A stretch of DNA of 64,000 bases. Origin: a virus (Duplodnaviria; Caudoviricetes). The position numbers and the translations under genes are program-made. The DNA lies in the IMG/VR virus record IMGVR_UViG_3300014205_000010, positions 27,321-91,320 of that record. One strand, given 5' to 3'. This document shows positions 2,556-27,475 of this stretch, piece by piece (position 1 is the stretch's first letter; each line of letters begins with the position of its first letter). The notes beneath the pieces are model-generated. The model was not told the origin of the DNA and did not search any database. It worked only from the letters and a program-made list of their open reading frames with translations.

Positions 2556-5500
2556 CTTATATACAGCAATATGGTAATTTACTTTATACTTCTGTAGCTT
2601 TTTCTACATATTCAGAAACAGACCAAAGAACATACTGGGGTATTAAAGCTGATCAAGAGATTCCATTTTTCAAGACTTATGATATTTCTCCTGTTCCAAT
2701 AGATCCACTTCCTGAACCTGTTGCAAACGATTATGACCCGACTTTAAACAAGTTGAGCTATACTACTGTAGCTTTTTCATCTTATATACACATTGTTAAT
2801 CAGGCCAGATTTATGGCTATTAGAGATCCAGAAGTTCCAGTATATATAGCTGACCAAGTTTTATCTGAAATTAATCCAACTCATGCTTATAACACAGCCG
2901 CAGTTTATGGAACATATGGATCTCATTTACAGAATTTATCTTATACATCTGTAGCTTTTAGATCTAATCTTATAGCTGGTCCAAAAGTAGACTGGAAAGG
3001 TATACCAGACCCAGAAATACCTTATCAACAGTATCCAGTAGCTATTGTTACTCCATATAGCCAGAAGGTTTCTCAAACTCAAAATGCTTTAGTGTCTGGA
3101 TCTGATTCATATACTACAGCAAATAATCCAGCCGTTATTATTGAACTCTGGGAATGGGAATGGGGAGATGACACCGTAAATGGTTTTGGAGAACAAGCTT
3201 TTCATTCATATGCTGAATTAGGTACTTATGTTGGCACATTAACTGTAACAGATTCTCTAGGTCAAAAAGCTAAGGCTAGTTTTACAGTAGAAGTTCTTGA
3301 ATTTGCAGAAAATAGAACTTTATACGCAACTAGTGAAGAGGCCGATCTTTTTGTTACCTTTGATAATGGTGAAAGTTGGAGAAAATACGCAACTAGATCT
3401 ATAAAACAGCAAACAATGAAAAATGTTTCTGGTAGATGCGTTGAGTCGGATCCAATTAATCAGTTTATGGCATACTTTGGTTTTAATAATGGAACGGTGT
3501 GGAAAACAAGAGATGGTCTTGGTACATTAGATTTACTGTATGATCTAGGCAGAAAAGTAGATATAACCAGTATTTCTATTGATCCTTATACTGGATATAA
3601 ACTATACTTTTCAACAGAAGATGGATATATATACGAAGCTGATTCAGACGGTTTTACACCGCTTAAAGTTATCGGAAATTTTGGTGAAACGTCAAAAATA
3701 AATGTCATAAAAGTTGGCGGTATTGGTGGAAATAAAATTCTTGCAGGTTTTCAAGAGCCAACTGGAGTAAGCTTACACCCTGGAAGTATATTCTATGACG
3801 AAGAATTTCCTTACTATCAACCTAATACAGCTAGTCTTTCTACTCTTAAGCAGTATAAAAAAGGTTCTGCTATAACATCTGTTACAGATGGGCATGGAAA
3901 TCCAGTTACTGACGGCGAAGGAAATCAGATAGTTAGGACCACTTATTTTAATGGCTGGTATAACGAAAGTGATGTTTTTGACGAGCCACCTGAAATAGAT
4001 TCTTATGTAAAAGAACCCGTTCTTGATATTGCTTTTAGCAGATATAATTCTCGTATATATTTTGCAGCTACTTCTGGGTATGTTCTTGAATATGGAAATA
4101 CAGCAAATGATGAAAGTCCATTTGGAGAGCCTACATATCGGACAAATAAATATGAACAGGTAGGTCTTAACAGTATAGATTCTGTTCTTATTAGACATGT
4201 ATTTTTGCCTAACGGAGAATACGCTAGGGCAGTAGGTGATGGCGGAATTATAGCTGGTGCATCTAGTACTCCGCATCTTGTTAAATCAATACGAGGAGAA
4301 ATTAGTCCAGGAACTCCTGGCTTTGTTAATGCTATTGCCTTGCCTCAGCATAGTCCATTTGGTCCAGTTCCAGAGGCTCAAATAGTTAAAGCTGATAATT
4401 CTACTCAGAATAAATTTTGGTGGACATATCATAATGGAGTTTTCAGAAGTTACGAAGGCACGTATTATTTAGGATATCAAACTGGAAGGCATCCAAGCAG
4501 TGTTGATGTTCCAATTCTTATCACCTATACGCAGTCTTATTATCTTCTAACAGCTCCATCTTATATCAGAGGTATATCTCAAGGACCAACAATATCTGCA
4601 TATGATATTCCAAAAACATTTTGGGATCCACTCCTCCCAATAAAAATACCATACAATCCAGGTAATACATACTTTCCGATATATTATCCATACTTTCCGA
4701 TATATTATCCGCCATATCTTGGTTACGATGGTTATCCTGGATATTTTCCAGATGGACCATATTATCCGTATCTTCCTCCTTTACCTTATCCAGATCCTGG
4801 TACATTATATCCACCAGATTGGCAACCACCAGGTACTTATGATCCATTTCCAGACCCACCATATCCACCTCCACCAACATGGACTGGAGGAACATTTCCT
4901 ACAGATATAAATCCATTTATGCCAATTGGTCCGTATGGTACAAGATGTGGTATAACAGATAATGCTACTTTCTTATCACAGCCAGTAAATGTCAGCCAAA
5001 ACGATATATATTTTCAGACTCCTTCAGCTAGAGATTTTGAAGTTGGAGAATATGTAGACATTCAGGTTGAAAAAATGAGAGTTCTTGAAGTACATCCCGG
5101 TATGTTAATTGTAGAAAGAGGAGCGCTGAATACAATACCATATCCTCATTATAGAACTGAAATTATAAGAGCAGTTATAGAAACAGGAGATTTTGAGACA
5201 GGTAATGGAGTAGTCTTGAATGAAGCTATAACTTCTACTCAGACTGTTATACCATTTATAATACCAGGAGCTGAAGGATTTGATGTTGACGATTATGTCA
5301 TGGGTAACCTTGAAAAAATGCGAATACTCTCGATATCAGTTGATGATATAACTGTTGTACGAGGAGTACTTGGCACAACTGCAACAAGCCACCCTCTTGG
5401 AACAATCCTCTGGGCAATAACTCCTGATTCTGGTGGAGATCAAGTAGTAGGTCTTAAAGCATCACAAGATATACATGCCGATGATACTGACTTGTATTTT

Positions 5501-6802
5501 GAAGATGTTAGACCTTTTGATCTTGGTGGGGTATATGAGATAGATGATGGCCATGGGACCATAGAGAATATATTTGTCCATTCCAAGACGGAATTTGGTC
5601 CTCCATTCTTTCCTGGGCAAGGATACATTTCTGTTTCTCGTGGATATAACGGAACTGTTCCTTCTTTCTTTGTTAAAGGCTGGTTTGCTCATCCATTTGA
5701 ATATGGAGCCAGATCTAAATACAAAATCTCTAAGCTAATAGCTGGAGATATTAGAATTGGTACTCAAAGTGGCGGATCTTTTGAGGATTCTGAGTTCCAT
5801 GTGGTATCTCCGACATCTATGAGATGTTCTCTTATAAGACCAACTGCTATATCTGGAGATAAAGTAGGTTTACAAGTAGATGTTCATGCAAGTCAAGTAG
5901 CCATAGGTTTCTTTTGCAGAATTGATATGCCTGGGTATGAAGCTAGCGAAGAACCACCTCAATGGGGATTAGAATATGCCGCTGTTAATCAGTGGTATGG
6001 ACTATTTGGAACCATGATAGGGTTTTCTTGTGATGGCCCTAATTATGAATCTGGTATTATAAGAAGAAGTCAATGGCCTGGCAATCCTAAGTATTATCCT
6101 CCAATTGGAGGCTCATTAACTATGGGTAACTGGGCCTGGGCAAACGGTCAATTGCAAGAATATTCAAGTCAATTTGATACTACTACTCCTACTCAGTGGG
6201 CTATTCCAGATGTAGCTGGTGCTCATATACCTATAAGAAAATGGTTTTGGATTTCTGCGGTATTTGATGTACATGCACAACCATTCAAAACAGATATAGG
6301 TGAACATGAAACTAGGTTATTTGAAGAATATGAATTCTGGGATCCGACTATTATTTGGAAAATTACTAGCATATATGGAGATATAATTACTAGTGATTCT
6401 AATCGAAATGGAATAATTAGTTTAAATGTTGTAGATAACCCGCAAGCTATTTTAGCAAAAGCTGGAAATTTTGCTGACAAAGAGTTTTTTACCGTAGGTA
6501 ATTATAAAAATATTTATGATGCTCTGCATTTTGATGGATGGGATAGCAGAGTGGCTAGCTCTCAACTAGATGGACCTCAGTTTGATAAGATATTTATTGG
6601 TCCTCATGTTGCTGTGAATGAATATCTTGAATCACTTGGTTATGGATGGAATATTCCACCAGATATAACTGTTTGGTATGATGGTATAGATATTAGACCA
6701 GGTGAAAATCAATTATTTGGGCCTCCAGCCATAACTAATTTAAAGGGTGAATGGCAAGAACCTGGAACTGAATTATGGCCATGGCAATATGGAGAACTAT
6801 GA
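2552..6802 (+). CDS. Large tail/receptor-binding protein (PKD domain, beta-propeller-like region, Pro/Tyr linker, repeats)
   Basis: PKD signature WEWGDD...HSY..LGTYVGTLTVTDS; BNR-like TFDNGESW and TRDG; three N-terminal LxYTxVAF repeats; three central E(K)MR..V.RG..(G/N)T repeats. Confidence 0.75.
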   Translation: MTYIQQYGNLLYTSVAFSTYSETDQRTYWGIKADQEIPFFKTYDISPVPIDPLPEPVANDYDPTLNKLSYTTVAFSSYIHIVNQARFMAIRDPEVPVYIADQVLSEINPTHAYNTAAVYGTYGSHLQNLSYTSVAFRSNLIAGPKVDWKGIPDPEIPYQQYPVAIVTPYSQKVSQTQNALVSGSDSYTTANNPAVIIELWEWEWGDDTVNGFGEQAFHSYAELGTYVGTLTVTDSLGQKAKASFTVEVLEFAENRTLYATSEEADLFVTFDNGESWRKYATRSIKQQTMKNVSGRCVESDPINQFMAYFGFNNGTVWKTRDGLGTLDLLYDLGRKVDITSISIDPYTGYKLYFSTEDGYIYEADSDGFTPLKVIGNFGETSKINVIKVGGIGGNKILAGFQEPTGVSLHPGSIFYDEEFPYYQPNTASLSTLKQYKKGSAITSVTDGHGNPVTDGEGNQIVRTTYFNGWYNESDVFDEPPEIDSYVKEPVLDIAFSRYNSRIYFAATSGYVLEYGNTANDESPFGEPTYRTNKYEQVGLNSIDSVLIRHVFLPNGEYARAVGDGGIIAGASSTPHLVKSIRGEISPGTPGFVNAIALPQHSPFGPVPEAQIVKADNSTQNKFWWTYHNGVFRSYEGTYYLGYQTGRHPSSVDVPILITYTQSYYLLTAPSYIRGISQGPTISAYDIPKTFWDPLLPIKIPYNPGNTYFPIYYPYFPIYYPPYLGYDGYPGYFPDGPYYPYLPPLPYPDPGTLYPPDWQPPGTYDPFPDPPYPPPPTWTGGTFPTDINPFMPIGPYGTRCGITDNATFLSQPVNVSQNDIYFQTPSARDFEVGEYVDIQVEKMRVLEVHPGMLIVERGALNTIPYPHYRTEIIRAVIETGDFETGNGVVLNEAITSTQTVIPFIIPGAEGFDVDDYVMGNLEKMRILSISVDDITVVRGVLGTTATSHPLGTILWAITPDSGGDQVVGLKASQDIHADDTDLYFEDVRPFDLGGVYEIDDGHGTIENIFVHSKTEFGPPFFPGQGYISVSRGYNGTVPSFFVKGWFAHPFEYGARSKYKISKLIAGDIRIGTQSGGSFEDSEFHVVSPTSMRCSLIRPTAISGDKVGLQVDVHASQVAIGFFCRIDMPGYEASEEPPQWGLEYAAVNQWYGLFGTMIGFSCDGPNYESGIIRRSQWPGNPKYYPPIGGSLTMGNWAWANGQLQEYSSQFDTTTPTQWAIPDVAGAHIPIRKWFWISAVFDVHAQPFKTDIGEHETRLFEEYEFWDPTIIWKITSIYGDIITSDSNRNGIISLNVVDNPQAILAKAGNFADKEFFTVGNYKNIYDALHFDGWDSRVASSQLDGPQFDKIFIGPHVAVNEYLESLGYGWNIPPDITVWYDGIDIRPGENQLFGPPAITNLKGEWQEPGTELWPWQYGEL

Positions 6803-12771: not shown

Positions 12772-13089
12772 TTAATGTTGTATCATAAACCAGGAAATGA
12801 ATGAATCGTAGTCCATAACTACATATTTCTTGCCGTTTACATCAAGAGCCATAGTAGGCCAGGTACCATTAGAGGCAGCTATTCTATCAACTTCTTTCCA
12901 GTCAGTGTTTTTTAGTGAAAATGAATCTCTTGCTGTTGTTTTGCAAGAAACAGTAAAGTCTTTTCCGACTACATCTCCTTTGGCAAACCACTGATTACCA
13001 CTGCCTGGAGTAGTATTGGCTTTAAAGTCATGAGCGACTTTTTCTTCAAACTTACTCCACTGTGGTTTCGGCATCTGGTTCAACCTCAT
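12772..13089 (-). CDS. Hjc-like PD-(D/E)xK resolvase/nuclease
   Basis: FEEKVA...PGSG...KGDV...VSCKTT pattern. Confidence 0.7.
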   Translation of the reverse strand: MRLNQMPKPQWSKFEEKVAHDFKANTTPGSGNQWFAKGDVVGKDFTVSCKTTARDSFSLKNTDWKEVDRIAASNGTWPTMALDVNGKKYVVMDYDSFISWFMIQH

Positions 13090-13381
13090 ACATATAATCT
13101 GGCTTTACATAGAATTTGTTAATATCGTAGTCGGCAAGAAAAATCATAACACTACCATTGCCATGACGCCACACTGCCTTGGATCCCTGTCCAACATCCT
13201 CAATTTTAACTAGACCAGTGTTATCAATCACATCTATACCATGCTTGGTATAAAGTTTCATGATAATAAACGGACCTTCAATTGCTCCAGTATCAGCCTT
13301 CTTGAATAAGTGCATACCCATCTTGACTTCGCCAATTTTATTTAACATTCTGTATCTACTAGCCATTGAAATTCTCCTCAA
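13052..13381 (-). CDS. Hypothetical protein
   Basis: ORF coupled to neighbours. Confidence 0.5.
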   Translation of the reverse strand: MRRISMASRYRMLNKIGEVKMGMHLFKKADTGAIEGPFIIMKLYTKHGIDVIDNTGLVKIEDVGQGSKAVWRHGNGSVMIFLADYDINKFYVKPDYMYEVEPDAETTVE

Positions 13382-14447
13382 TTAATTTTCTTTTTTCAGT
13401 TCGATCTAAAGAACCGAACCAATCCATTATTCTGAGATTTTTCGCATACTCAGCGTACGGTCTGAGATCAATAAATTGTTTTCCTCGTCTAGGATTGGAT
13501 TCTCTTTGTAGGGTTCGTCTTGCACTTGCTCCGAGCCACTCTCCCATGAAGCAGGTGACAGCCTTCCCAGCCTGTGCATATTGATTTCCCACGTTTCCGA
13601 TAAATTCGAATTCATCTCCGTAACCAAAGATTCGAGCTTCTTCACGAACAGTGAGAAATCTGTCAAAGCTTGGGTGGATAATTGTAGGGCCGCCGGTGAT
13701 TGTGGGCCCAGGAGATCTCCAACTTGCTCTCCTAGTAGGACCGAAAGGTTGACCATATAGATTATCTCTAGCTGAGGGGAGTCTTCTCCAGATTTCCGAG
13801 GCTGTAAATCCAGGTGGAATATACTTCGCGATGGAAGCGACTTGCCCTGTGAATTTAGTTTTGTCATGATTCAGAAATTCTCCTTCTGCTATAAATTGTA
13901 AATCCCAGATAGCATCTTTTATTGTTGGAACTGGCATTGGATTAAATTTTGCCAGCTTAAAGTCGTATTTACTAGCTATATAATGAAATCTCGGTCTTAT
14001 CTGTGGGCTACCATGTAATACGCTATCGGAGAACAGATAAGTATGCTGATACTCATGGAAAATACTATCCAGGTCGGCGAGTATATCTTGACCTTTATTC
14101 CATAGGCCAGGAACAGACTCCATAATAAAAATATCGGTATCCAAAGCCATGGCAATATCAGCACACTCATACATACAGTTATTAATTGGGTCGTGTGAAC
14201 CACGATTAGCACCCATAACTGAAAAGGCTGAACATGGAGGATTTGCCACGACCAGATTAATATTTTTTGGTAAATAACTACCCCATTTATTCTTCGGATA
14301 TATTATCGGAAATGAAAAATTATGCCTGGCAGTCTCAAGGCCAAGACCAAGATTTTCGTACATGGCTTTTACTTCAAAACCAGCTCTTTGTATCCCAATT
14401 ATAAACGAGCCAGCAAAAATATGGACACCTACCGCTGTTAAGCTCAT
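13359..14447 (-). CDS. C5-cytosine DNA methyltransferase-like enzyme with atypical motifs
   Basis: Motif IV NPPCSAFS, VI ESVP, VIII PQIRPR, IX RFLTVREEARIFGY, X QAGKAV; motif I HIFAGSF. Confidence 0.85.
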   Translation of the reverse strand: MSLTAVGVHIFAGSFIIGIQRAGFEVKAMYENLGLGLETARHNFSFPIIYPKNKWGSYLPKNINLVVANPPCSAFSVMGANRGSHDPINNCMYECADIAMALDTDIFIMESVPGLWNKGQDILADLDSIFHEYQHTYLFSDSVLHGSPQIRPRFHYIASKYDFKLAKFNPMPVPTIKDAIWDLQFIAEGEFLNHDKTKFTGQVASIAKYIPPGFTASEIWRRLPSARDNLYGQPFGPTRRASWRSPGPTITGGPTIIHPSFDRFLTVREEARIFGYGDEFEFIGNVGNQYAQAGKAVTCFMGEWLGASARRTLQRESNPRRGKQFIDLRPYAEYAKNLRIMDWFGSLDRTEKRKLIEENFNG

Positions 14448-15022
14448 TTTATCGGAATACCTTTTCTTTTGAAATAATCTCCATCTGCTAATATTATCTT
14501 AATACGATATTCTCTTCTAAAACACTCAACCTTATCTAAGCCAATATGCCGGCCCTTTACTTCAATCCAGGTGTTTTTTTCAGGTAAGAAAAAATCTGGT
14601 AGATATGTTCCAATAGAAATTTTGAATCTTTTTGGTTCATAAATCCATTTTATATTTTTAGAATCTAGCCATCTTGCAAAGCTTGATTCCCATCTACTTC
14701 TAAACCAGATATTTTTGTATTGTACTCGTCTTGTAATTCTATGATTTTCAGGTTTAAATCTTCCTTCCATCATAGCTGTAATTACTTTGGCTGATATTTT
14801 AGCTCTAGTTTCAGAGTTTAATTTTTGACCTTTGAGCTTATTAGAAATTTTATTTTTACATTCTTGAGATCGAGGCTTTCCTTTTCTCCAGGCTGCTTGT
14901 CTTATTAATTCTTCTTTTGTTCTATTTCTAGTTGCATTAGCAATTTTATTACTATGTTCTGGATCACAAACCTTGCAATAGTTGTGAGCTTTACCGCATG
15001 ATTTGATGGTCCAGTTTCTCAT
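14444..15022 (-). CDS. Free-standing homing-endonuclease-like protein (NUMOD3 repeats + PD-(D/E)xK nuclease)
   Basis: KGKPRSQECKNKIS and KGQKLNSETRAKIS NUMOD3-like repeats; RSRWE...YEP...YLPDF...IEVKG nuclease. Confidence 0.8.
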   Translation of the reverse strand: MRNWTIKSCGKAHNYCKVCDPEHSNKIANATRNRTKEELIRQAAWRKGKPRSQECKNKISNKLKGQKLNSETRAKISAKVITAMMEGRFKPENHRITRRVQYKNIWFRSRWESSFARWLDSKNIKWIYEPKRFKISIGTYLPDFFLPEKNTWIEVKGRHIGLDKVECFRREYRIKIILADGDYFKRKGIPIK

Positions 15023-16047
15023 ATAGCAGCCATTACCTGTTTTCTTATGTCAATTAAAGCTGCTCTATCTGATTTTAAGAAATCTGCAAATGCTTTGGCT
15101 CCTCTGTAATTGATACCATCATATTTATAGAATGCCCCTGACTGAGTAATAATGCCTGTAACACGCCCAGCTGCAATAATATCTTTGATTCTATCGATTT
15201 TGCCGTTGTAATAGAAATCAAATTCGGCTTCTTTTCCATGAGGGCCTCCGACTTTACATTTTCTTACTCTAGCCTTTACTGTATGACCAACCTGTGCTTC
15301 TTTGTTTTTTGGATTAACTGGAACAGATAGATACGATGGTATATCATTCGGTTTTATCCATTCGCCAGCCCTGAGTTCAATCCTGAGTGAAGCGAAGAAC
15401 TTAAGGCCTCTACCACCTGGTTGAAAATCTCCTGCTCTGGGCCCACCGATAGTACTTCTATTTTGATTAATTATGACGATTGCTGTGTTGTGGTTTCTTG
15501 CATTAATTCTCTTGAATCCGAGGTTATTAACTCTAGCATCAACTGCCATGTGCGTTTGCATGTCATTATCTGTGATGGCCATAGGAGCGAACGCGGTAAG
15601 AGAATCAAGAATGATGAGGTCAACTGGCTCAAAGTCATGATACTCCTTGCTCCTTGGATTACCTAGATTAATAGCCTTGAATAGGATATCAAATCCTTCT
15701 TCAGATTCTGCAATTTGAGATACAACCAACCTAGATACATCTACACCTAGAGTAGTCATCCATGCTGAATCGAAAGATTTTTCTGCATCTACCCATAAGC
15801 ATGTCATTTTCTTTTTCTGAGCTTCTACGATAATTTTGGCTGCGATAGCTGATTTACCAGCTGACTCATTGCCAAATATCTCGGTTGTCTTACCCATTGG
15901 GATTCCACCATTAGTTGCCCAATCTAAAAAGAGAGATCCAGTTGATATTCTATTTACCTCTTGCTTTTGCCAATCTGATCCAAGGAAAATCGAATCGGCC
16001 CCGTGTTCTTTTTGTATGATTGCTATGAGGTCGCTAATACTTGTCAT
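15019..16047 (-). CDS. recA: RecA/UvsX-like recombinase
   Basis: ISTGSLFLD, Walker A GNESAGKS, DAEKS, IILDS, INQNR, PGGRGLKFFASLRI. Confidence 0.95.
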   Translation of the reverse strand: MTSISDLIAIIQKEHGADSIFLGSDWQKQEVNRISTGSLFLDWATNGGIPMGKTTEIFGNESAGKSAIAAKIIVEAQKKKMTCLWVDAEKSFDSAWMTTLGVDVSRLVVSQIAESEEGFDILFKAINLGNPRSKEYHDFEPVDLIILDSLTAFAPMAITDNDMQTHMAVDARVNNLGFKRINARNHNTAIVIINQNRSTIGGPRAGDFQPGGRGLKFFASLRIELRAGEWIKPNDIPSYLSVPVNPKNKEAQVGHTVKARVRKCKVGGPHGKEAEFDFYYNGKIDRIKDIIAAGRVTGIITQSGAFYKYDGINYRGAKAFADFLKSDRAALIDIRKQVMAAI

Positions 16048-16616
16048 GATTTTTTAGGCTTAGGAAGCATATCTAACGGAGTCCATTCAGCTCGAGTTTT
16101 TCCATATCTTCCAGTGTATTGAGATTCAGTAAGACCAACATTATGGAAAGTAATTTGAGCTATTCTCTCTCCGACTTCAATTGATACGTCAAAGTCAGAA
16201 TCATTAGTCATTTCCATAGTCCAGCGAGATACATAACCAACATCGCCAAGACCAGCACATTTACACACCGAGAGACAGTGTCTACCTGTCGTGGATTTAG
16301 CTTTCATCTCAGTGGTAATGATATTCATACCACCAATGAATTCCTCGGTGTGGCAGAGGATAGTCTCACGCGCTCTGACAACGATCAACTCATCCGCCTT
16401 TATAGGCTTATCCCACATTAAATTGAAAGCATCAGAGGTGCCATAGCGAATTGTAGGCCTTCCAGCATAATATTGTTTTTGCCTAAAAAACCATTCTCCG
16501 AGTCTAACGTCGTATGAATTTGAATTTAACTGGCTATTAAAATATGGGTCAATCAGAATATTTCCTTCTTCCATTTGACCCTTGATTTCTGCATCACTTA
16601 ACATTGAGTGCCTCAT
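16044..16616 (-). CDS. dcd: dCTP deaminase
   Basis: MLSDAEI, NSYDVRLG, AKSTTGR, DVGY..RWTMEM, GERIAQI, YTGRY. Confidence 0.85.
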   Translation of the reverse strand: MRHSMLSDAEIKGQMEEGNILIDPYFNSQLNSNSYDVRLGEWFFRQKQYYAGRPTIRYGTSDAFNLMWDKPIKADELIVVRARETILCHTEEFIGGMNIITTEMKAKSTTGRHCLSVCKCAGLGDVGYVSRWTMEMTNDSDFDVSIEVGERIAQITFHNVGLTESQYTGRYGKTRAEWTPLDMLPKPKKS

Positions 16617-19272: not shown

Positions 19273-20217
19273 TTAATACCATTCTAGATGTTTTAACAAA
19301 ATTGAGTATGACCCACAAATAGAAGTATCTATTGTAATATCAGGATTTCTTCTAATCCTGTAATATAGAAGAGTAGATAGCATGTCTTTAACAGTATCAT
19401 CTTCATCTATTGATAGTATTTCCTCAAGAGTCTTGTGCAATTCTTCAGTAGTAAAATCTGTTTTTCGTATTTTATACTCAAGAGTTGATACTCTGTGTAT
19501 GTTTGAAATTAGAGACGTCTTTGTGCTTTCTTGAAAACTAATGATTTTTGGTTCTTCATCTACTATCTGATTAAGAATTTTTACATTACTCTCATATGCA
19601 TGAAGCGAGCCACATATATGAGTATATGTTCCTACACCAAGTGATGTTTGATTTGCTACAATTTCTAGAAGTGAAGCCCAATGATAGAAATCATATGGAA
19701 GGCCTAGATATATATCTTGAGATCTAACGTATACTACAAGATCTAACCATTCACCTCGTGGCAAGAAATGTAACATGATATTACATGGAAAGTCCTTCGT
19801 ATTAACCGTCTGATCTCTTGGCTGATAAATTGTAGCAACTGCTTGTCTTGTACTCTTATCTAGGTTTATTTTATTGATGATGCTCGGTATCTGTCTCATC
19901 AACCTTGGGCCATAAGCTCCATGTAGGGTTCTTCCATCATCAGAAAACTCCCACATCTTCTTGTTATAAAAGCCAATCATGTCTGCTCTGTTATTTTGTG
20001 TAGTTATCCACAAATATTCTGCAATCATGAAGTATGGATTTATTCTTCTGACTTTATTAGTTATAATTTTACTAGTCGGATTTTCCACAACTATAGATGT
20101 AGGCCCGATGTCTAATGTTGGAATACCTCTAGGAGAATATCTTGCTCCATGATCTAGAATATATTTTATTATTTCTGGATATATTGTTTCAATGTCCTCT
20201 GCATCAAATACTTCCAA
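19273..20217 (-). CDS. Thymidylate-synthase-family enzyme, dCMP-type (hydroxymethylase/methylase/hydroxylase)
   Basis: GAYGPR, DFPCN catalytic Cys, RSQD...GLPYD (Asp at the ThyA Asn177 position), SLHAYE. Confidence 0.85.
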   Translation of the reverse strand: MEVFDAEDIETIYPEIIKYILDHGARYSPRGIPTLDIGPTSIVVENPTSKIITNKVRRINPYFMIAEYLWITTQNNRADMIGFYNKKMWEFSDDGRTLHGAYGPRLMRQIPSIINKINLDKSTRQAVATIYQPRDQTVNTKDFPCNIMLHFLPRGEWLDLVVYVRSQDIYLGLPYDFYHWASLLEIVANQTSLGVGTYTHICGSLHAYESNVKILNQIVDEEPKIISFQESTKTSLISNIHRVSTLEYKIRKTDFTTEELHKTLEEILSIDEDDTVKDMLSTLLYYRIRRNPDITIDTSICGSYSILLKHLEWY

Positions 20218-21334
20218 TGTTTACGTCCTTTATAAACTTCTCGACGATATTGTCTATAGAGAATTTATTTCGAAAAAACTTTCCTTGCTCTTCTTGAGCA
20301 TATGGCCCAAAATCTAAAAGTCGTTTAATATTTGTAACTGCACCCATCGTGGTTACATATTCATTTTCTTTTGGAAAGAACCATTCTTTAGTCATTTCAG
20401 CATAACCAGCAAACTTAGGGAATATACATCTTAGTCCAAGAGAGAGTCCTTCGCCCATGCTCATAGACCACTGGCCTGGGTAATCGAAGAGTGTTAAGTG
20501 CACCCATCCCTTGGAAATGTGTGTCAAATATTCTTCATAGCTGTTGGTAACTGAATTTATTACCTTTGGATGATTTAAGATTGGGTGAGCTTTTCCACTC
20601 GGATTAGTAATGATTATCTTTAGACCTGGTACATGTAATCTATCTAAGATTCGTTCAAGGCTACTGATAGCATTAGCATATTGTGGAGCTGAAGATAGTC
20701 TGTGATTGTAGATCAACGTCGGATAGTCATTCTTAATGGCTATTTTAGCGATTGATCCTATGAGTTCAGTGTTGAGCGGAGGGTTAATAATAAGAGGCTT
20801 GGCTTGAGGAGGTTTAAGTCCATTTATAAGTCGCAATCCTCCTAGATATCTTTCATATCCAGTCTGAGAATTGAATGCAATATAATCAGCTTTCCATGCT
20901 GCTTCAATTTGTCTGAAGAAATAAGAATTTTTCAGTTCTATTACTGGATTATCTGGACTATCTATCCAGTGATTATAGGCAATAATTATTCCGTCATATA
21001 CTGACCTATATTGACCAACTCTGCATGGATCATTAGTCCATAAAATATCTGGATTTTCTTTGTTTATAACTTTCTTGACATAATTATCAACAAAGAATCT
21101 ATCCTGAACTATACCATGAAAATCTACATAATACAATACAGCATTTGGCATAGATTGATAACCGTCGCCAATACGCTGTTCATCCCATGGCATCAGAATA
21201 ACACATTCATGGCCTCTTTTAGAAAGGCCTTCTATCATGCTTTTCATGAAGATATAATTACTGTCTGATGTAATTAAAAGTTTTCCATCAATGTCTAAGC
21301 TGCTAATCTGCAGATCGAACAGAATTTTTACCAT
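20204..21334 (-). CDS. GT-B fold glycosyltransferase (putative DNA glycosyltransferase)
   Basis: GLSKRGHEC, NPDILW, IAFNS, YNHR, WSMSMGEGLSLG...P (GT4-like acidic/Gly motif). Confidence 0.7.
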   Translation of the reverse strand: MVKILFDLQISSLDIDGKLLITSDSNYIFMKSMIEGLSKRGHECVILMPWDEQRIGDGYQSMPNAVLYYVDFHGIVQDRFFVDNYVKKVINKENPDILWTNDPCRVGQYRSVYDGIIIAYNHWIDSPDNPVIELKNSYFFRQIEAAWKADYIAFNSQTGYERYLGGLRLINGLKPPQAKPLIINPPLNTELIGSIAKIAIKNDYPTLIYNHRLSSAPQYANAISSLERILDRLHVPGLKIIITNPSGKAHPILNHPKVINSVTNSYEEYLTHISKGWVHLTLFDYPGQWSMSMGEGLSLGLRCIFPKFAGYAEMTKEWFFPKENEYVTTMGAVTNIKRLLDFGPYAQEEQGKFFRNKFSIDNIVEKFIKDVNIGSI

Positions 21335-21854
21335 TAGAATTTATCCAGCCTATAATTCTATCAATTTTATCTGTAGTTGGTTTAAAAGTCATATAATCTA
21401 GGCCTTCTTCAAAACCAAGTTTTTTCAACATTGTATTATACTCTGTTATGATAGGTATAATATATTCTGTTGGTTTATCCTCTGCTCTCCATCTTTCAAC
21501 TATAGTTTCTATTTCTTCTATAACCAGAATGAGCTTAATAACATCCTTGTTCTGTCTCATTTGTTTTTCATACCAAGGAAAATCACAAGCTCGGCCAAAT
21601 ACCTTGGCATAAACTAATTCACTGAATGAAAACCTATCTAGAATAAAATCTTTATATGCATTTACTTCTCTGGCAAGTTTAATTATTTTTTCACAGTCTT
21701 CTTTGCCTCTTCGAAATTCTCTTATAGTTTCCCATCCATTTTCTGAAGGCCTTGGGACTGTTAATACTTTAAAATTATATGGATCACCAGAAAGTGTTGT
21801 CAGAAGTGTAGTTTTGCCTACGCGATCTATTCCTTCAAGTACAAATGCGGTCAT
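21303..21854 (-). CDS. dNMP kinase (thymidylate kinase-like)
   Basis: P-loop LEGIDRVGKTT; ILDRFSFSELVY. Confidence 0.85.
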   Translation of the reverse strand: MTAFVLEGIDRVGKTTLLTTLSGDPYNFKVLTVPRPSENGWETIREFRRGKEDCEKIIKLAREVNAYKDFILDRFSFSELVYAKVFGRACDFPWYEKQMRQNKDVIKLILVIEEIETIVERWRAEDKPTEYIIPIITEYNTMLKKLGFEEGLDYMTFKPTTDKIDRIIGWINSNGKNSVRSAD

Positions 21855-22951
21855 AGAAAAGTTGCTCTCCTAGAAGATAATTGTTCTGCCTCAGCATTCA
21901 TTTTATAGTATCTGGATGGTCCACTACTACACATTCTACATATCTCGTTTTGATCATTAATATGTTCAGCAGCTATTCTTTCAATGTTTTCTTTTGTCAT
22001 TATCCGTAACAACGGAGTATCATATATATTTCCGTATGAGTACTTCATATCTCGCTGATCGAAAGGAAGATTATCTCCGACGAGATAGCAACAAGGAAAT
22101 ACTGAACCATCAGTATCTATAAAAGCATGCAGATATGGAATAACACAGTTTTTTGGGTCTACTGGAGATACTTTGTCTCCATTTGTTATAATTTGGCGTA
22201 CGTTAGTATATCTGTCTATCCAATCACTAAAATCTGAGGTATTACCAAATAAATTTGCCAGGTCATAGCGAAGTTTAAGTACCTGTTGTTCTGTAACTAC
22301 GTTATAGTCATGAACAAAATACCCATAAATTGGTATCTGATTATCATAGCATTTTTTTACCATAAGCGGAAATTCTTCTATGTTTTCTGACTGTATGGTG
22401 TACTGAACTCTAACCTTATCTAAACCAGCTTCGCTATAGAGTCGCACGAATTCATTCTTAACAAAAGCTGCATTTACAAAAGCAGTTTCATATGAATTTG
22501 GGTGTGAACCTCTAATTTTTGCCCAAGTTTGTGGTGTAGCTCCGTCTATAGAAAACCTGATAAATCCGAATTTAGTCAAATCCAGATCAACATATCTATT
22601 GGTAGAATTATCAAGACCAGTAGTAAACATCCCAAGTTTTATCTCTGGTTTAATGTGATCAATGAGAGCTTTGAGATGAACATAATTCATTGGGTCTCCA
22701 CCAGATAAAACAATAGTTTCAAGATCTGGTAGGCTATTAAGCTCTCTTACGGCTAATTCAACTTGAATGACATTTTTGCTACCGGCTTGAATAGCTGCCC
22801 ATTCTGGTTTATGACACATAATACATTTTTGTGGGCATGTATTCGTGACATTAAGCTGAACTGAAACAAGGTGTGGTTCTTGTCTTTTTATCCATGATTC
22901 ATACATAGTAACATATTGCGGCATTATTCTATTATAACCACCTATATACAA
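21851..22951 (-). CDS. Radical SAM enzyme with SPASM/Twitch domain
   Basis: CPQKCIMC, SGGDP, FSIDG, C..PY...IDTDGSVFPCC...GNI...CRMC. Confidence 0.9.
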   Translation of the reverse strand: MYIGGYNRIMPQYVTMYESWIKRQEPHLVSVQLNVTNTCPQKCIMCHKPEWAAIQAGSKNVIQVELAVRELNSLPDLETIVLSGGDPMNYVHLKALIDHIKPEIKLGMFTTGLDNSTNRYVDLDLTKFGFIRFSIDGATPQTWAKIRGSHPNSYETAFVNAAFVKNEFVRLYSEAGLDKVRVQYTIQSENIEEFPLMVKKCYDNQIPIYGYFVHDYNVVTEQQVLKLRYDLANLFGNTSDFSDWIDRYTNVRQIITNGDKVSPVDPKNCVIPYLHAFIDTDGSVFPCCYLVGDNLPFDQRDMKYSYGNIYDTPLLRIMTKENIERIAAEHINDQNEICRMCSSGPSRYYKMNAEAEQLSSRRATFL

Positions 22952-22960
22952 GATGTAAAT

Positions 22961-23641
22961 TTATATTCTTGAAGAAATTGTATTCATGATGGCTTTATAA
23001 GCTCTTTCGTTTTCAGTTACGAATTCTAATTTCTTCATAGCAGCTATAGTTCTATCAGTATGTCTGTATCTTTCATATGCTGGATGATACATTGTCATGT
23101 ATAATCCACTATAATATTCTCTTGACATGTATAGAATTTTGTTTCTAATTCTGTCTGTTGTTATAAATGGATCTTTTTGGTGTGTTTGATCAAAAAACCA
23201 TGAATGCGCCAAATTTCCCAGGGATAAAATCGCCCAGGGATCTATTAGTCTGATTTGATCTTCAAGCCACTCCCTGCAATTATATACTTCTTCATGGGTA
23301 GGCAATGAGTTATCTGGAGTTCTACACTTTATGATATTTGTTAGTGCCCAGACAGTATCCTCTGAAAACCCTTGCTTTAACCACTCGCCAATAGGGGCCT
23401 CCATGAGACCCCTTGCATATCCTTGCTGGAACCTGCGCCACTGTTCTTCTTCTGCGTATGAATTGTCATCCCAACCAGAAGCTCTTTTACTTAACTGTCC
23501 TGGATTTTGTGCAACAACCAAAATCTTGGCATCTTTTGGAAAAAACCCAGGCATGCTAGCGAATTGAAACCTAGGACAAGTCCTACATTTCCATATTCGC
23601 TGATTTAACTCTTTCAACGGCGATTGGGTTACCTTCGGCAA
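22961..23641 (-). CDS. Uracil-DNA-glycosylase superfamily protein (family 4/5-like, Fe-S)
   Basis: CRTC, VAQNPG, TNIIKCRTPDN...C, YHPAY. Confidence 0.8.
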   Translation of the reverse strand: MPKVTQSPLKELNQRIWKCRTCPRFQFASMPGFFPKDAKILVVAQNPGQLSKRASGWDDNSYAEEEQWRRFQQGYARGLMEAPIGEWLKQGFSEDTVWALTNIIKCRTPDNSLPTHEEVYNCREWLEDQIRLIDPWAILSLGNLAHSWFFDQTHQKDPFITTDRIRNKILYMSREYYSGLYMTMYHPAYERYRHTDRTIAAMKKLEFVTENERAYKAIMNTISSRI

Positions 23642-23972
23642 CTTGTCTATCCCAGTTCATTCTAATTTTGGTGAGAATCCACTCTGTAGCTTCATCAGCT
23701 TCTATTCCAAGGATGAGAAGCATGTTAACAGAGAAGATGAAGCAATCAACGGCTTCCTCGATTTGTTTGTCTCGATTGTGAGGCCGCGCTCTCTTGGACA
23801 CTTTCCAATTGAATTCATCTCTATACTCGAATGCTTCTCTTGCTAGGCCCGTAGAAAGATAATCTGCGATCTTGTCGAGATATTGAGGATCCTCGCTGAC
23901 TTTTTTGAAGTCAACGAAGAGAGCCTCAAATTCTTTCTGGACCTTGAAGATTTCTCCAAGGCCTTCAGCCAT
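23583..23972 (-). CDS. All-alpha dimeric dUTPase/dCTPase (MazG-like)
   Basis: REAFEY..E.NWK...EEAVDCFIF. Confidence 0.8.
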   Translation of the reverse strand: MAEGLGEIFKVQKEFEALFVDFKKVSEDPQYLDKIADYLSTGLAREAFEYRDEFNWKVSKRARPHNRDKQIEEAVDCFIFSVNMLLILGIEADEATEWILTKIRMNWDRQVAEGNPIAVERVKSANMEM

Positions 23973-27297: not shown

Positions 27298-27475
27298 TAA
27301 AGGCTTTTTTCAGGCCGTCTCTAGCGCTACTGCAGTACTTAGCTAGAACATTGTGACACTCTGTTAAACCACGTTTCTTATCTTCAAATTCTTCCTCAAC
27401 TGATGCTTGAATTTCTATGAAAGAATAATCAGCTATCTTATAATGTTCTGTTCTTGTTATTTTAATCACAGGCAT
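27275..27475 (-). CDS. Hypothetical protein
   Basis: ORF in operon with an AAGGA RBS. Confidence 0.55.
   Translation of the reverse strand: MPVIKITRTEHYKIADYSFIEIQASVEEEFEDKKRGLTECHNVLAKYCSSARDGLKKAFNEGEFDL

Follow-up and report, generated by a model that had tools for sequence, protein, structure and literature searches.

Among the described systems closest to the gene studied here is CmoX of Synechococcus phage S-B43 (SpCmoX), which makes 5-carboxymethylcytosine from carboxy-S-adenosylmethionine (Cx-SAM) supplied by a phage CmoA, after which the ligase CmoY adds glycine (PMC12783734, December 2025). The CmoX family is defined by an SPPC motif and Arg350, and counts 5,615 sequences with 4,257 CmoA genes on their contigs (roughly three quarters); Arg350 of SpCmoX corresponds to Asn304 of M.HhaI and touches the carboxymethyl group of Cx-SAM, and Escherichia coli CmoA alone could supply the enzyme (PMC12783734). 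In addition, M.MpeI N374K and the homologous M.CviPI variant are engineered carboxymethyltransferases (PMC13288465). In this work, we analyse a C5-methyltransferase-fold gene with a Lys at the same site, located in a 64,000-nucleotide stretch of viral DNA (the window; positions 27,321 to 91,320 of IMG/VR record IMGVR_UViG_3300014205_000010, Caudoviricetes). The window makes up the right-hand 64 kb of the phage genome, which is complete at 91,320 bp and has direct terminal repeats.

An earlier reading of the letters and open reading frames (ORFs) of this window, made without database searches (the sequence-only reading), had proposed that the product of this gene, P0001 (362 amino acids), may install a non-methyl group on cytosine. 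The idea of a natural carboxymethyltransferase already has a published precedent in CmoX with its Arg350 (PMC12783734). By comparing motifs, structure models, phylogeny and genome contents, we find that P0001 belongs to a large viral clade that is strictly coupled to the deoxycytidine monophosphate (dCMP) hydroxymethylase route, and whose members may act on 5-hydroxymethylcytosine (5hmC) in phage DNA.

An intact catalytic centre with altered cofactor motifs

P0001 is a C5-methyltransferase-fold protein with intact catalytic residues. Its reading frame is free of stops over the whole 362 residues, it matches PF00145 with 94.8 bits against a cut-off of 22 (E value 8.6e-27), and its AlphaFold2 (AF2) model, computed with a 73-sequence alignment as input, has a mean predicted local distance difference test (pLDDT) score of 96.3. 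A Foldseek search with this model returned M.HaeIII as the top match (E value 7e-22, template modelling (TM) score 0.69–0.76) and SpCmoX (Protein Data Bank (PDB) 8YF3) as the tenth. Canonical C5-methyltransferases (M.HaeIII, M.HhaI; PF00145) are thus its best matches in both fold and sequence, and the catalytic Pro-Cys, the Glu of motif VI and the QxRxR string are all found in P0001, with Cys, Glu and RxR common to both. Its FxGxG, GPPCQ, ENV and GN motifs, however, are all altered, and the canonical cofactor motifs FxGxG (motif I), the Asn of ENV (motif VI) and the Asn of GN (motif X) are absent. P0001 also misses the cut-off of the dcm model TIGR00675 (60.4 bits against 100.65), which SpCmoX passes at 158 bits.

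The unusual motifs quoted in the sequence-only reading (FAGSF, NPPC, ESV, QIRPR and GKAV) are all present at the coordinates checked (Table 1). In the register of M.HaeIII, motif I is shifted, with the Phe of P0001 lying on the first Gly of FxGxGG and His9 occupying the position of the canonical Phe. The same reading had placed a Lys at the Asn of the cofactor pocket, and alignments bear this out: HMMER places Lys295 on the Asn of GNAV in M.HaeIII and on its equivalent in DNMT1/ZMET2, and both MAFFT and a profile alignment place it on Arg350 of SpCmoX. As for the engineered precedents that it had invoked for an Asn-to-Lys change, M.MpeI N374K is documented (PMC13288465, PMC12783734), but Dcm N436K was not found in a literature search. 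Lys295 occupies the same structural position as the Lys of M.MpeI N374K; however, this variant and that of M.CviPI are single substitutions in otherwise canonical enzymes, whereas P0001 is altered in motifs I, IV, VI and X and its Lys alternates with Arg and Gln among its relatives.

A large viral clade apart from CmoX

Judged from alignments, the motif changes of P0001 are not private quirks, being invariant in six close relatives and typical of a large clade. The close family consists of six metagenomic sequences with 61–69% identity to P0001, all with FAGSF, NPPCS, ESV and GKAV. Past these, scores in an exhaustive profile search fall from 726 to 182 bits, and the large clade lies below this gap. 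Its consensus reads [IV][FY]AGGF, NPPC[A/S] and ES-V, with K, R or Q at motif X, a signature that P0001 fits (FAGSF, NPPCS, ESV and GKAV) with the one nuance that its motif I Ser14 is Gly in most members. In the best 150 representatives, motif X carries K in 84, Q in 35, R in 23 and N in 8, and all 8 rows with N are ordinary GGPPCQ/ENV proteins. We further collected IMG/VR loci with 10-kb flanks, keeping 80 from 202 confirmed matches, 71 of which have a called clade ORF. In these 71, motif X is K in 33, R in 30, Q in 8 and N in none, NPPC[A/S] is always present and ES-V nearly always. Across an alignment of 73 diverse members, P70, C72, E110, R151 and R153 are invariant, N69 and Glu31 are conserved in at least 90%, and the glycine loop and Trp55 are conserved as well. 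Clade members, P0001 included, score 54–65 bits on TIGR00675, below its cut-off.

The clade is large, distinct, viral and known only from uncultured viruses. When K-, R- and Q-type members were compared by tblastn with 50,697 GenBank phages, all matches were canonical methylases with no more than 28% identity and no clade member was found; the matches that we inspected (in A-1(L), NatCom_9287 and PfAC20) have GN in motif X. Neither is the clade described in the papers on TET-linked phage methylases, 5-hydroxycytosine and MetaGPA. A profile search with the alignment of the close family found no loci in viral or genome contigs, and the genomic contexts discussed below are drawn from clade members more distant than the six close relatives. 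One 8.7-kb contig carries two inverted copies of a clade gene with equal hidden Markov model score and motif strings (L012:2302-3330(+) and 5407-6435(-)), which may reflect a fold-back in assembly and not a true duplication. A cultured phage shows a further natural change at the cofactor-pocket position: gp38 of Flavobacterium phage Fpv5 (NC_031921.1; L236:8929-9996) is a methylase with SPPCS and ENV like CmoX, but with Met in place of the motif-X Asn (GMSV). In the search that gave this protein, 29 of 36 matching records were Flavobacterium psychrophilum phages, of which only Fpv5 was inspected.

In a maximum-likelihood tree, a quick search with few canonical rows, SpCmoX groups with four canonical methylases and separates from 76 clade rows, P0001 among them (Shimodaira–Hasegawa-like approximate likelihood ratio test (SH-aLRT) support of 95). 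Within these 76 non-canonical rows, P0001 clusters with its six relatives as a tight sub-family (support 100), and K, R and Q each switch many times at motif X. CmoX and P0001 do have the C5-methyltransferase fold in common, both are phage-encoded, and both have PPCSAFS, with a Ser after the catalytic Cys, and a basic residue in place of the motif-X Asn. However, where CmoX has Arg, SPPC, ENV and a FAGGGG motif I, P0001 has Lys, NPPC, ESV and FAGSF. The CmoX definition requires Arg at the R350 position, and Lys295 is basic like the engineered N374K. Of the adenosine contacts of SpCmoX, only the ribose-binding Glu is kept, whereas the adenine contacts Phe25, Phe48 and Asp69 are without a conserved counterpart in the clade. 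On these alignments and this tree, P0001 is not a CmoX relative.

This comparison bears on whether P0001 could be a Lys-type, Cx-SAM-dependent cytosine C5-carboxymethyltransferase that draws Cx-SAM from a CmoA-positive host. The position of Lys295, equivalent to both Arg350 of SpCmoX and the engineered Lys of M.MpeI N374K (PMC12783734; PMC13288465), the common PPC-S-A-F-S string and the sufficiency of E. coli CmoA for SpCmoX (PMC12783734) would all fit. CmoX, though, stands beside CmoA and CmoY, and the sequence-only reading had already noted that no CmoA is visible in the window; TIGR00740, the CmoA model, finds none in the entire 91,320-bp genome either, nor in 50 viral records with clade members, 23 of which are at least 90% complete. 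Likewise, phmmer searches with SpCmoA and SpCmoY were negative for this genome and for the 80 related loci with their 10-kb flanks, against 4,257 CmoA genes for 5,615 CmoX contigs. Furthermore, about a quarter of the clade has Gln instead of Lys or Arg, the three residues switch repeatedly on the tree, and the clade has NPPC rather than SPPC and lies away from SpCmoX. We thus consider carboxymethylation improbable. The premise of a Lys in the pocket holds and CmoX provides a precedent, but the Cx-SAM version of the suggestion loses ground with the missing CmoA, the interchange of K, R and Q and the separate branching; that the enzyme does something other than plain methylation is plausible.

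Strict coupling to the dCMP hydroxymethylase route

Genome contents link the clade to a different pathway. Of the 50 viral records that carry it, 46 encode a thymidylate-synthase homologue, as do all 23 records that are at least 90% complete. When counted by lineages with less than 40% identity to each other, 10 of 11 have such a homologue, and the exception is a fragment with an estimated completeness of 48%. Genomes with canonical viral methylases, in contrast, almost never encode one: in a provirus-rich control of 48 viral records chosen by the canonical GGPPCQGFS methylase motif, there was a single case, which scores as a full-length thymidylate synthase (E value 2e-118) in a 243-kb phage.

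The signature of T4-type 5-hydroxymethyl-dCMP synthases, in ThyA numbering, consists of Asp at both N177 and D169 together with Asp or Glu at L143, whereas D169N (in ThyA numbering) would instead mark 5-hydroxy-dCMP synthases (PMC13326640, a 2026 Nucleic Acids Research paper). All 62 synthase sequences examined, from 53 distinct records, carry the former signature, and the gene in our window reads DFPC (Asp at L143) and SQDIYLGLPYD (Asp at both D169 and N177). When neighbours within 6 kb were clustered over the 71 loci, the thymidylate-synthase homologue was the most frequent partner (32 loci, including this window), accompanied by P-loop thymidylate-kinase-like proteins (29), dUTPase_2 or MazG pyrophosphatases (51 combined) and dCMP deaminase (21). 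Overall, 58 of the 71 loci have at least one of synthase, P-loop kinase, MazG/dUTPase_2 pyrophosphatase and dCMP deaminase at this distance. The clade is therefore strictly coupled to the dCMP hydroxymethylase route, as these co-occurrence counts show. The sequence-only reading had viewed the enzyme as a possible second modification layer beside the dCMP-synthase route; its independence from that route is contradicted by the 23 of 23 complete records.

Two further genes were noted at these loci. A 348-residue protein with no Pfam match, encoded between the thymidylate-synthase homologue and the kinase in the Arg-type, Pam3-like lineage (L040:11561-12607(+)), is conserved with homologues in 21 loci and may be an additional enzyme of the pathway. 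In the Arg-type lineage, the clade gene is also followed, a few kb downstream, by a gene for a UDP-glucose/GDP-mannose dehydrogenase (L078:16983-18254(+) and 12 other loci), which hints at uronic-acid sugars in the DNA modification of that lineage.

The coupling also weighs on the carboxymethylation discussed above, as the synthase of clade genomes would leave C5 already occupied: the genome of S-B43, the reference CmoX phage, is without a thymidylate-synthase homologue, whereas 23 of 23 complete clade genomes have one. It likewise bears on an ordinary S-adenosylmethionine (SAM)-dependent 5-methylcytosine methyltransferase with divergent motifs, which would act at particular sites, on cytosines left unreplaced, or on host or early DNA. 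Such an enzyme would agree with the canonical fold and full set of catalytic residues, and with the conservation of the ribose-binding Glu31 and the glycine loop. DNMT3-type enzymes, moreover, have Arg in motif X and yet use SAM, so that the Asn is not absolutely required. Even so, an enzyme that needs unmodified cytosine is not expected only beside a dCMP hydroxymethylase (23 of 23 records with a synthase against 1 of 48 controls), four motifs around the transferred group are altered together across the clade, the adenine contacts of SpCmoX lack conserved counterparts, and P0001 reaches only 60 bits on TIGR00675, where 100.65 are required. Plain methylation is, in our view, unlikely.

A possible action on 5-hydroxymethylcytosine

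The reading that we favour, possible if not quite probable, is that the enzyme acts on hydroxymethylcytosine in phage DNA by catalysis through attack of Cys on C6. This reading rests on the genomic coupling, because an enzyme dependent on a free C5 should not be confined to phages in which C5 is filled before replication. From the alignments, the four changed motifs would all surround the place of the transferred group or of the C5 substituent: the residues after the catalytic Cys and after the Glu are smaller than in canonical enzymes, and Asn69 and Lys, Arg or Gln at position 295 add hydrogen-bond donors, whereas the residues that serve the attack of Cys on C6 are invariant.

In the mechanism that we propose, the synthase homologue, the nucleotide kinase and the enzymes that remove dCTP would put 5hmC in phage DNA in place of cytosine. 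P0001 would then flip out this base, Cys72 would add to C6, and Glu110 together with Arg151 and Arg153 would hold the base. Chemistry would take place on the exocyclic 5-CH2OH, in a rebuilt pocket formed by Asn69, Ser73, Ser111 and Lys295, with the hydroxyl either displaced by a nucleophile that occupies the old cofactor site or itself alkylated; this would give a cytosine carrying an additional modification rather than 5-methyl- or 5-carboxymethylcytosine made from plain cytosine. We infer all three elements: hydroxymethylcytosine in the DNA, that base as the substrate, and the chemistry. A more specific version, somewhat unlikely as it stands, is an enzyme that has ceased to alkylate C5 from SAM and rewrites 5hmC by nucleophilic substitution under covalent Cys-C6 catalysis, which by analogy would be the cytosine counterpart of the aGPT-Pplase step and would yield an undescribed hypermodified cytosine in a widespread set of uncultured phages.

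Such chemistry has precedents. In the absence of SAM, C5-methyltransferases join thiols to 5hmC and formaldehyde to cytosine (PMC7176277), and in thymidine hypermodification a thiolate attack of aGPT-Pplases on C6 drives chemistry at C5 (PMC8989533). The pair of aGPT-Pplase and the 5-hydroxymethyldeoxyuridine (5-hmdU) DNA kinase 5-HMUDK would thus be a possible functional analogue, with thiolate attack on C6 and chemistry on a 5-hydroxymethyl pyrimidine in DNA (PMC8989533, PMC5889632). It differs, however, by an unrelated fold and a uracil-derived base, and most clade genomes are without the kinase domain.

That kinase domain does occur within the clade, as member P0049 is fused to the 5-hmdU DNA kinase helical domain (PF18723, E value 3.6e-29); in one genome (G048), a kinase gene with this domain adjoins the methylase-like gene, and in another the two lie 7 kb apart. 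Other fusions are to an O-methyltransferase-like class I domain (three cases), a UDG (uracil-DNA glycosylase)-superfamily domain (three) and the family A DNA polymerase PolA (one). The UDG-superfamily and polymerase fusions, found among members P0079, P0096, P0107 and P0064, suggest from domain architecture an action at or near the replication fork. We also considered the fused class I methyltransferase domains as CmoA-like Cx-SAM synthases, a candidate that was rejected after phmmer gave no match and NCBIfam only weak UbiG-like ones.

Formation of hydroxymethylcytosine after replication is a further alternative, in which the enzyme would place a one-carbon unit, from formaldehyde or methylene-folate, onto residual unmodified cytosines and so back up the nucleotide route. 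M.HhaI can hydroxymethylate its sites with formaldehyde (PMC7176277), and such an activity would account for the link with the hydroxymethylase pathway as well as for the lost cofactor contacts of canonical enzymes. Conserved Glu31, however, points to a nucleoside cofactor, and this alternative would leave unexplained why clade members are fused to the DNA kinase domain or to the O-methyltransferase-like domain. We also know of no natural post-replicative cytosine hydroxymethylase of this type, and regard this alternative as very improbable.

Several observations weigh against an action on 5hmC. The conservation of Glu31 and of the glycine loop means that an adenosyl cofactor such as SAM may still bind, leaving a transfer reaction possible. 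Co-occurrence with the synthase could partly reflect shared ancestry, as the counts include related phages, although it holds over 10 distant lineages; in the control, about 25 records are non-provirus, 1 of them with a synthase. The DNA kinase helical domain is present in only 2 of 50 genomes and absent from the other 48, and PF18723 was not found in the genome of this phage, which excludes phosphate activation as a general route. The methylase-like gene of this phage, moreover, lies about 5 kb from the synthase and not beside it, the glycosyltransferase would compete for the same hydroxyl, and no clade member is available in a cultured phage among the 50,697 GenBank records.

Genomic surroundings of the gene

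The modification genes of this phage resemble the hydroxymethylcytosine pathway of T4 (gp42, gp1, gp56 and glucosyltransferases), with an Asp-type synthase, a kinase and pyrophosphatase module and, in this phage, a glycosyltransferase. To our knowledge, the T4 pathway as described has no C5-methyltransferase-fold enzyme. The UDG-superfamily gene of the window is free-standing, at 22961-23641 within the modification block, and is listed with the other features in Table 1.

Table 1 Features of the methylase-like gene and its surroundings, in window coordinates
Feature	Position	Strand	Basis
C5-methyltransferase-fold gene (P0001, 362 aa)	13359..14447	(-)	PF00145 E 8.6e-27; AF2 pLDDT 96.3; clade tables; tree
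Motif I, FAGSF, residues 11-15, replaces FxGxG	14403..14417	(-)	Alignments, coordinate check
Glu31, motif II acidic residue, equivalent to Glu47 of SpCmoX; binds cofactor ribose in canonical enzymes	14355..14357	(-)	Alignment
Motif IV, NPPC, catalytic Cys72, followed by Ser instead of Gln	14232..14243	(-)	Alignment, coordinate check
Motif VI, ESV instead of ENV, Glu110	14112..14120	(-)	Alignment, coordinate check
Motif VIII, QIRPR, Arg151 and Arg153	13989..14003	(-)	Alignment, coordinate check
Motif X, GKAV; Lys295 codon 13563-13565, position of M.HhaI Asn304 and SpCmoX Arg350	13557..13568	(-)	Alignments
Thymidylate-synthase homologue, dCMP-hydroxymethylase signature	19273..20217	(-)	Pfam, PHROG, residue check
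dCTP deaminase-like gene, pyrimidine pool control	16044..16616	(-)	PF22769 E 6.7e-30
Rest of cytosine-modification block: GT4-like glycosyltransferase, P-loop nucleotide kinase, radical SAM/SPASM, UDG-superfamily protein, MazG/dUTPase_2-like pyrophosphatase	20204..23972	(-)	Pfam, PHROG
Homing-endonuclease-like gene, stop overlaps methylase-like start (ATGA)	14444..15022	(-)	Pfam, PHROG
Small downstream ORF without Pfam or PHROG match; overlaps methylase-like stop	13052..13381	(-)	ORF list, Pfam, PHROG

Judging by its overlapping ends, the methylase-like gene is translationally coupled to the genes on either side. Coupling to the homing-endonuclease-like gene follows from the overlap of stop and start in ATGA; this ORF, with NUMOD3, a restriction-endonuclease-like domain and matches to several endonuclease PHROGs, sits between RecA and the methylase-like gene. 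The small ORF on the other side opens at TTG as listed, but a likelier start is the ATG at 13366, which lies 8 nucleotides behind GAGGAG and overlaps the stop of the methylase-like gene. Three tRNA genes (Leu-taa, Met-cat and Arg-tct) lie at 30906-31816(-), where the replication module meets a GC-richer early region, and the DnaE of this phage has only matches of about 36%, to phages of Firmicutes and gut phages.

Implications

Known phage cytosine hypermodifications start either with a nucleotide-level thymidylate-synthase homologue or with a DNA methyltransferase, the latter together with TET or in the form of CmoX. The clade described here appears to combine both routes, with methyltransferase-fold enzymes that are confined to genomes in which C5 is already taken by the nucleotide route, and whose pocket around the transferred group is rebuilt. 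If these enzymes are carboxymethyl- or methyltransferases after all, then the motif-X Asn and the definition of CmoX by SPPC and Arg would be too narrow. If, instead, they do act on hydroxymethylcytosine, this would represent a new natural chemistry for a well-studied fold, give many environmental phages a previously undescribed DNA base and offer a possible means to label 5hmC.

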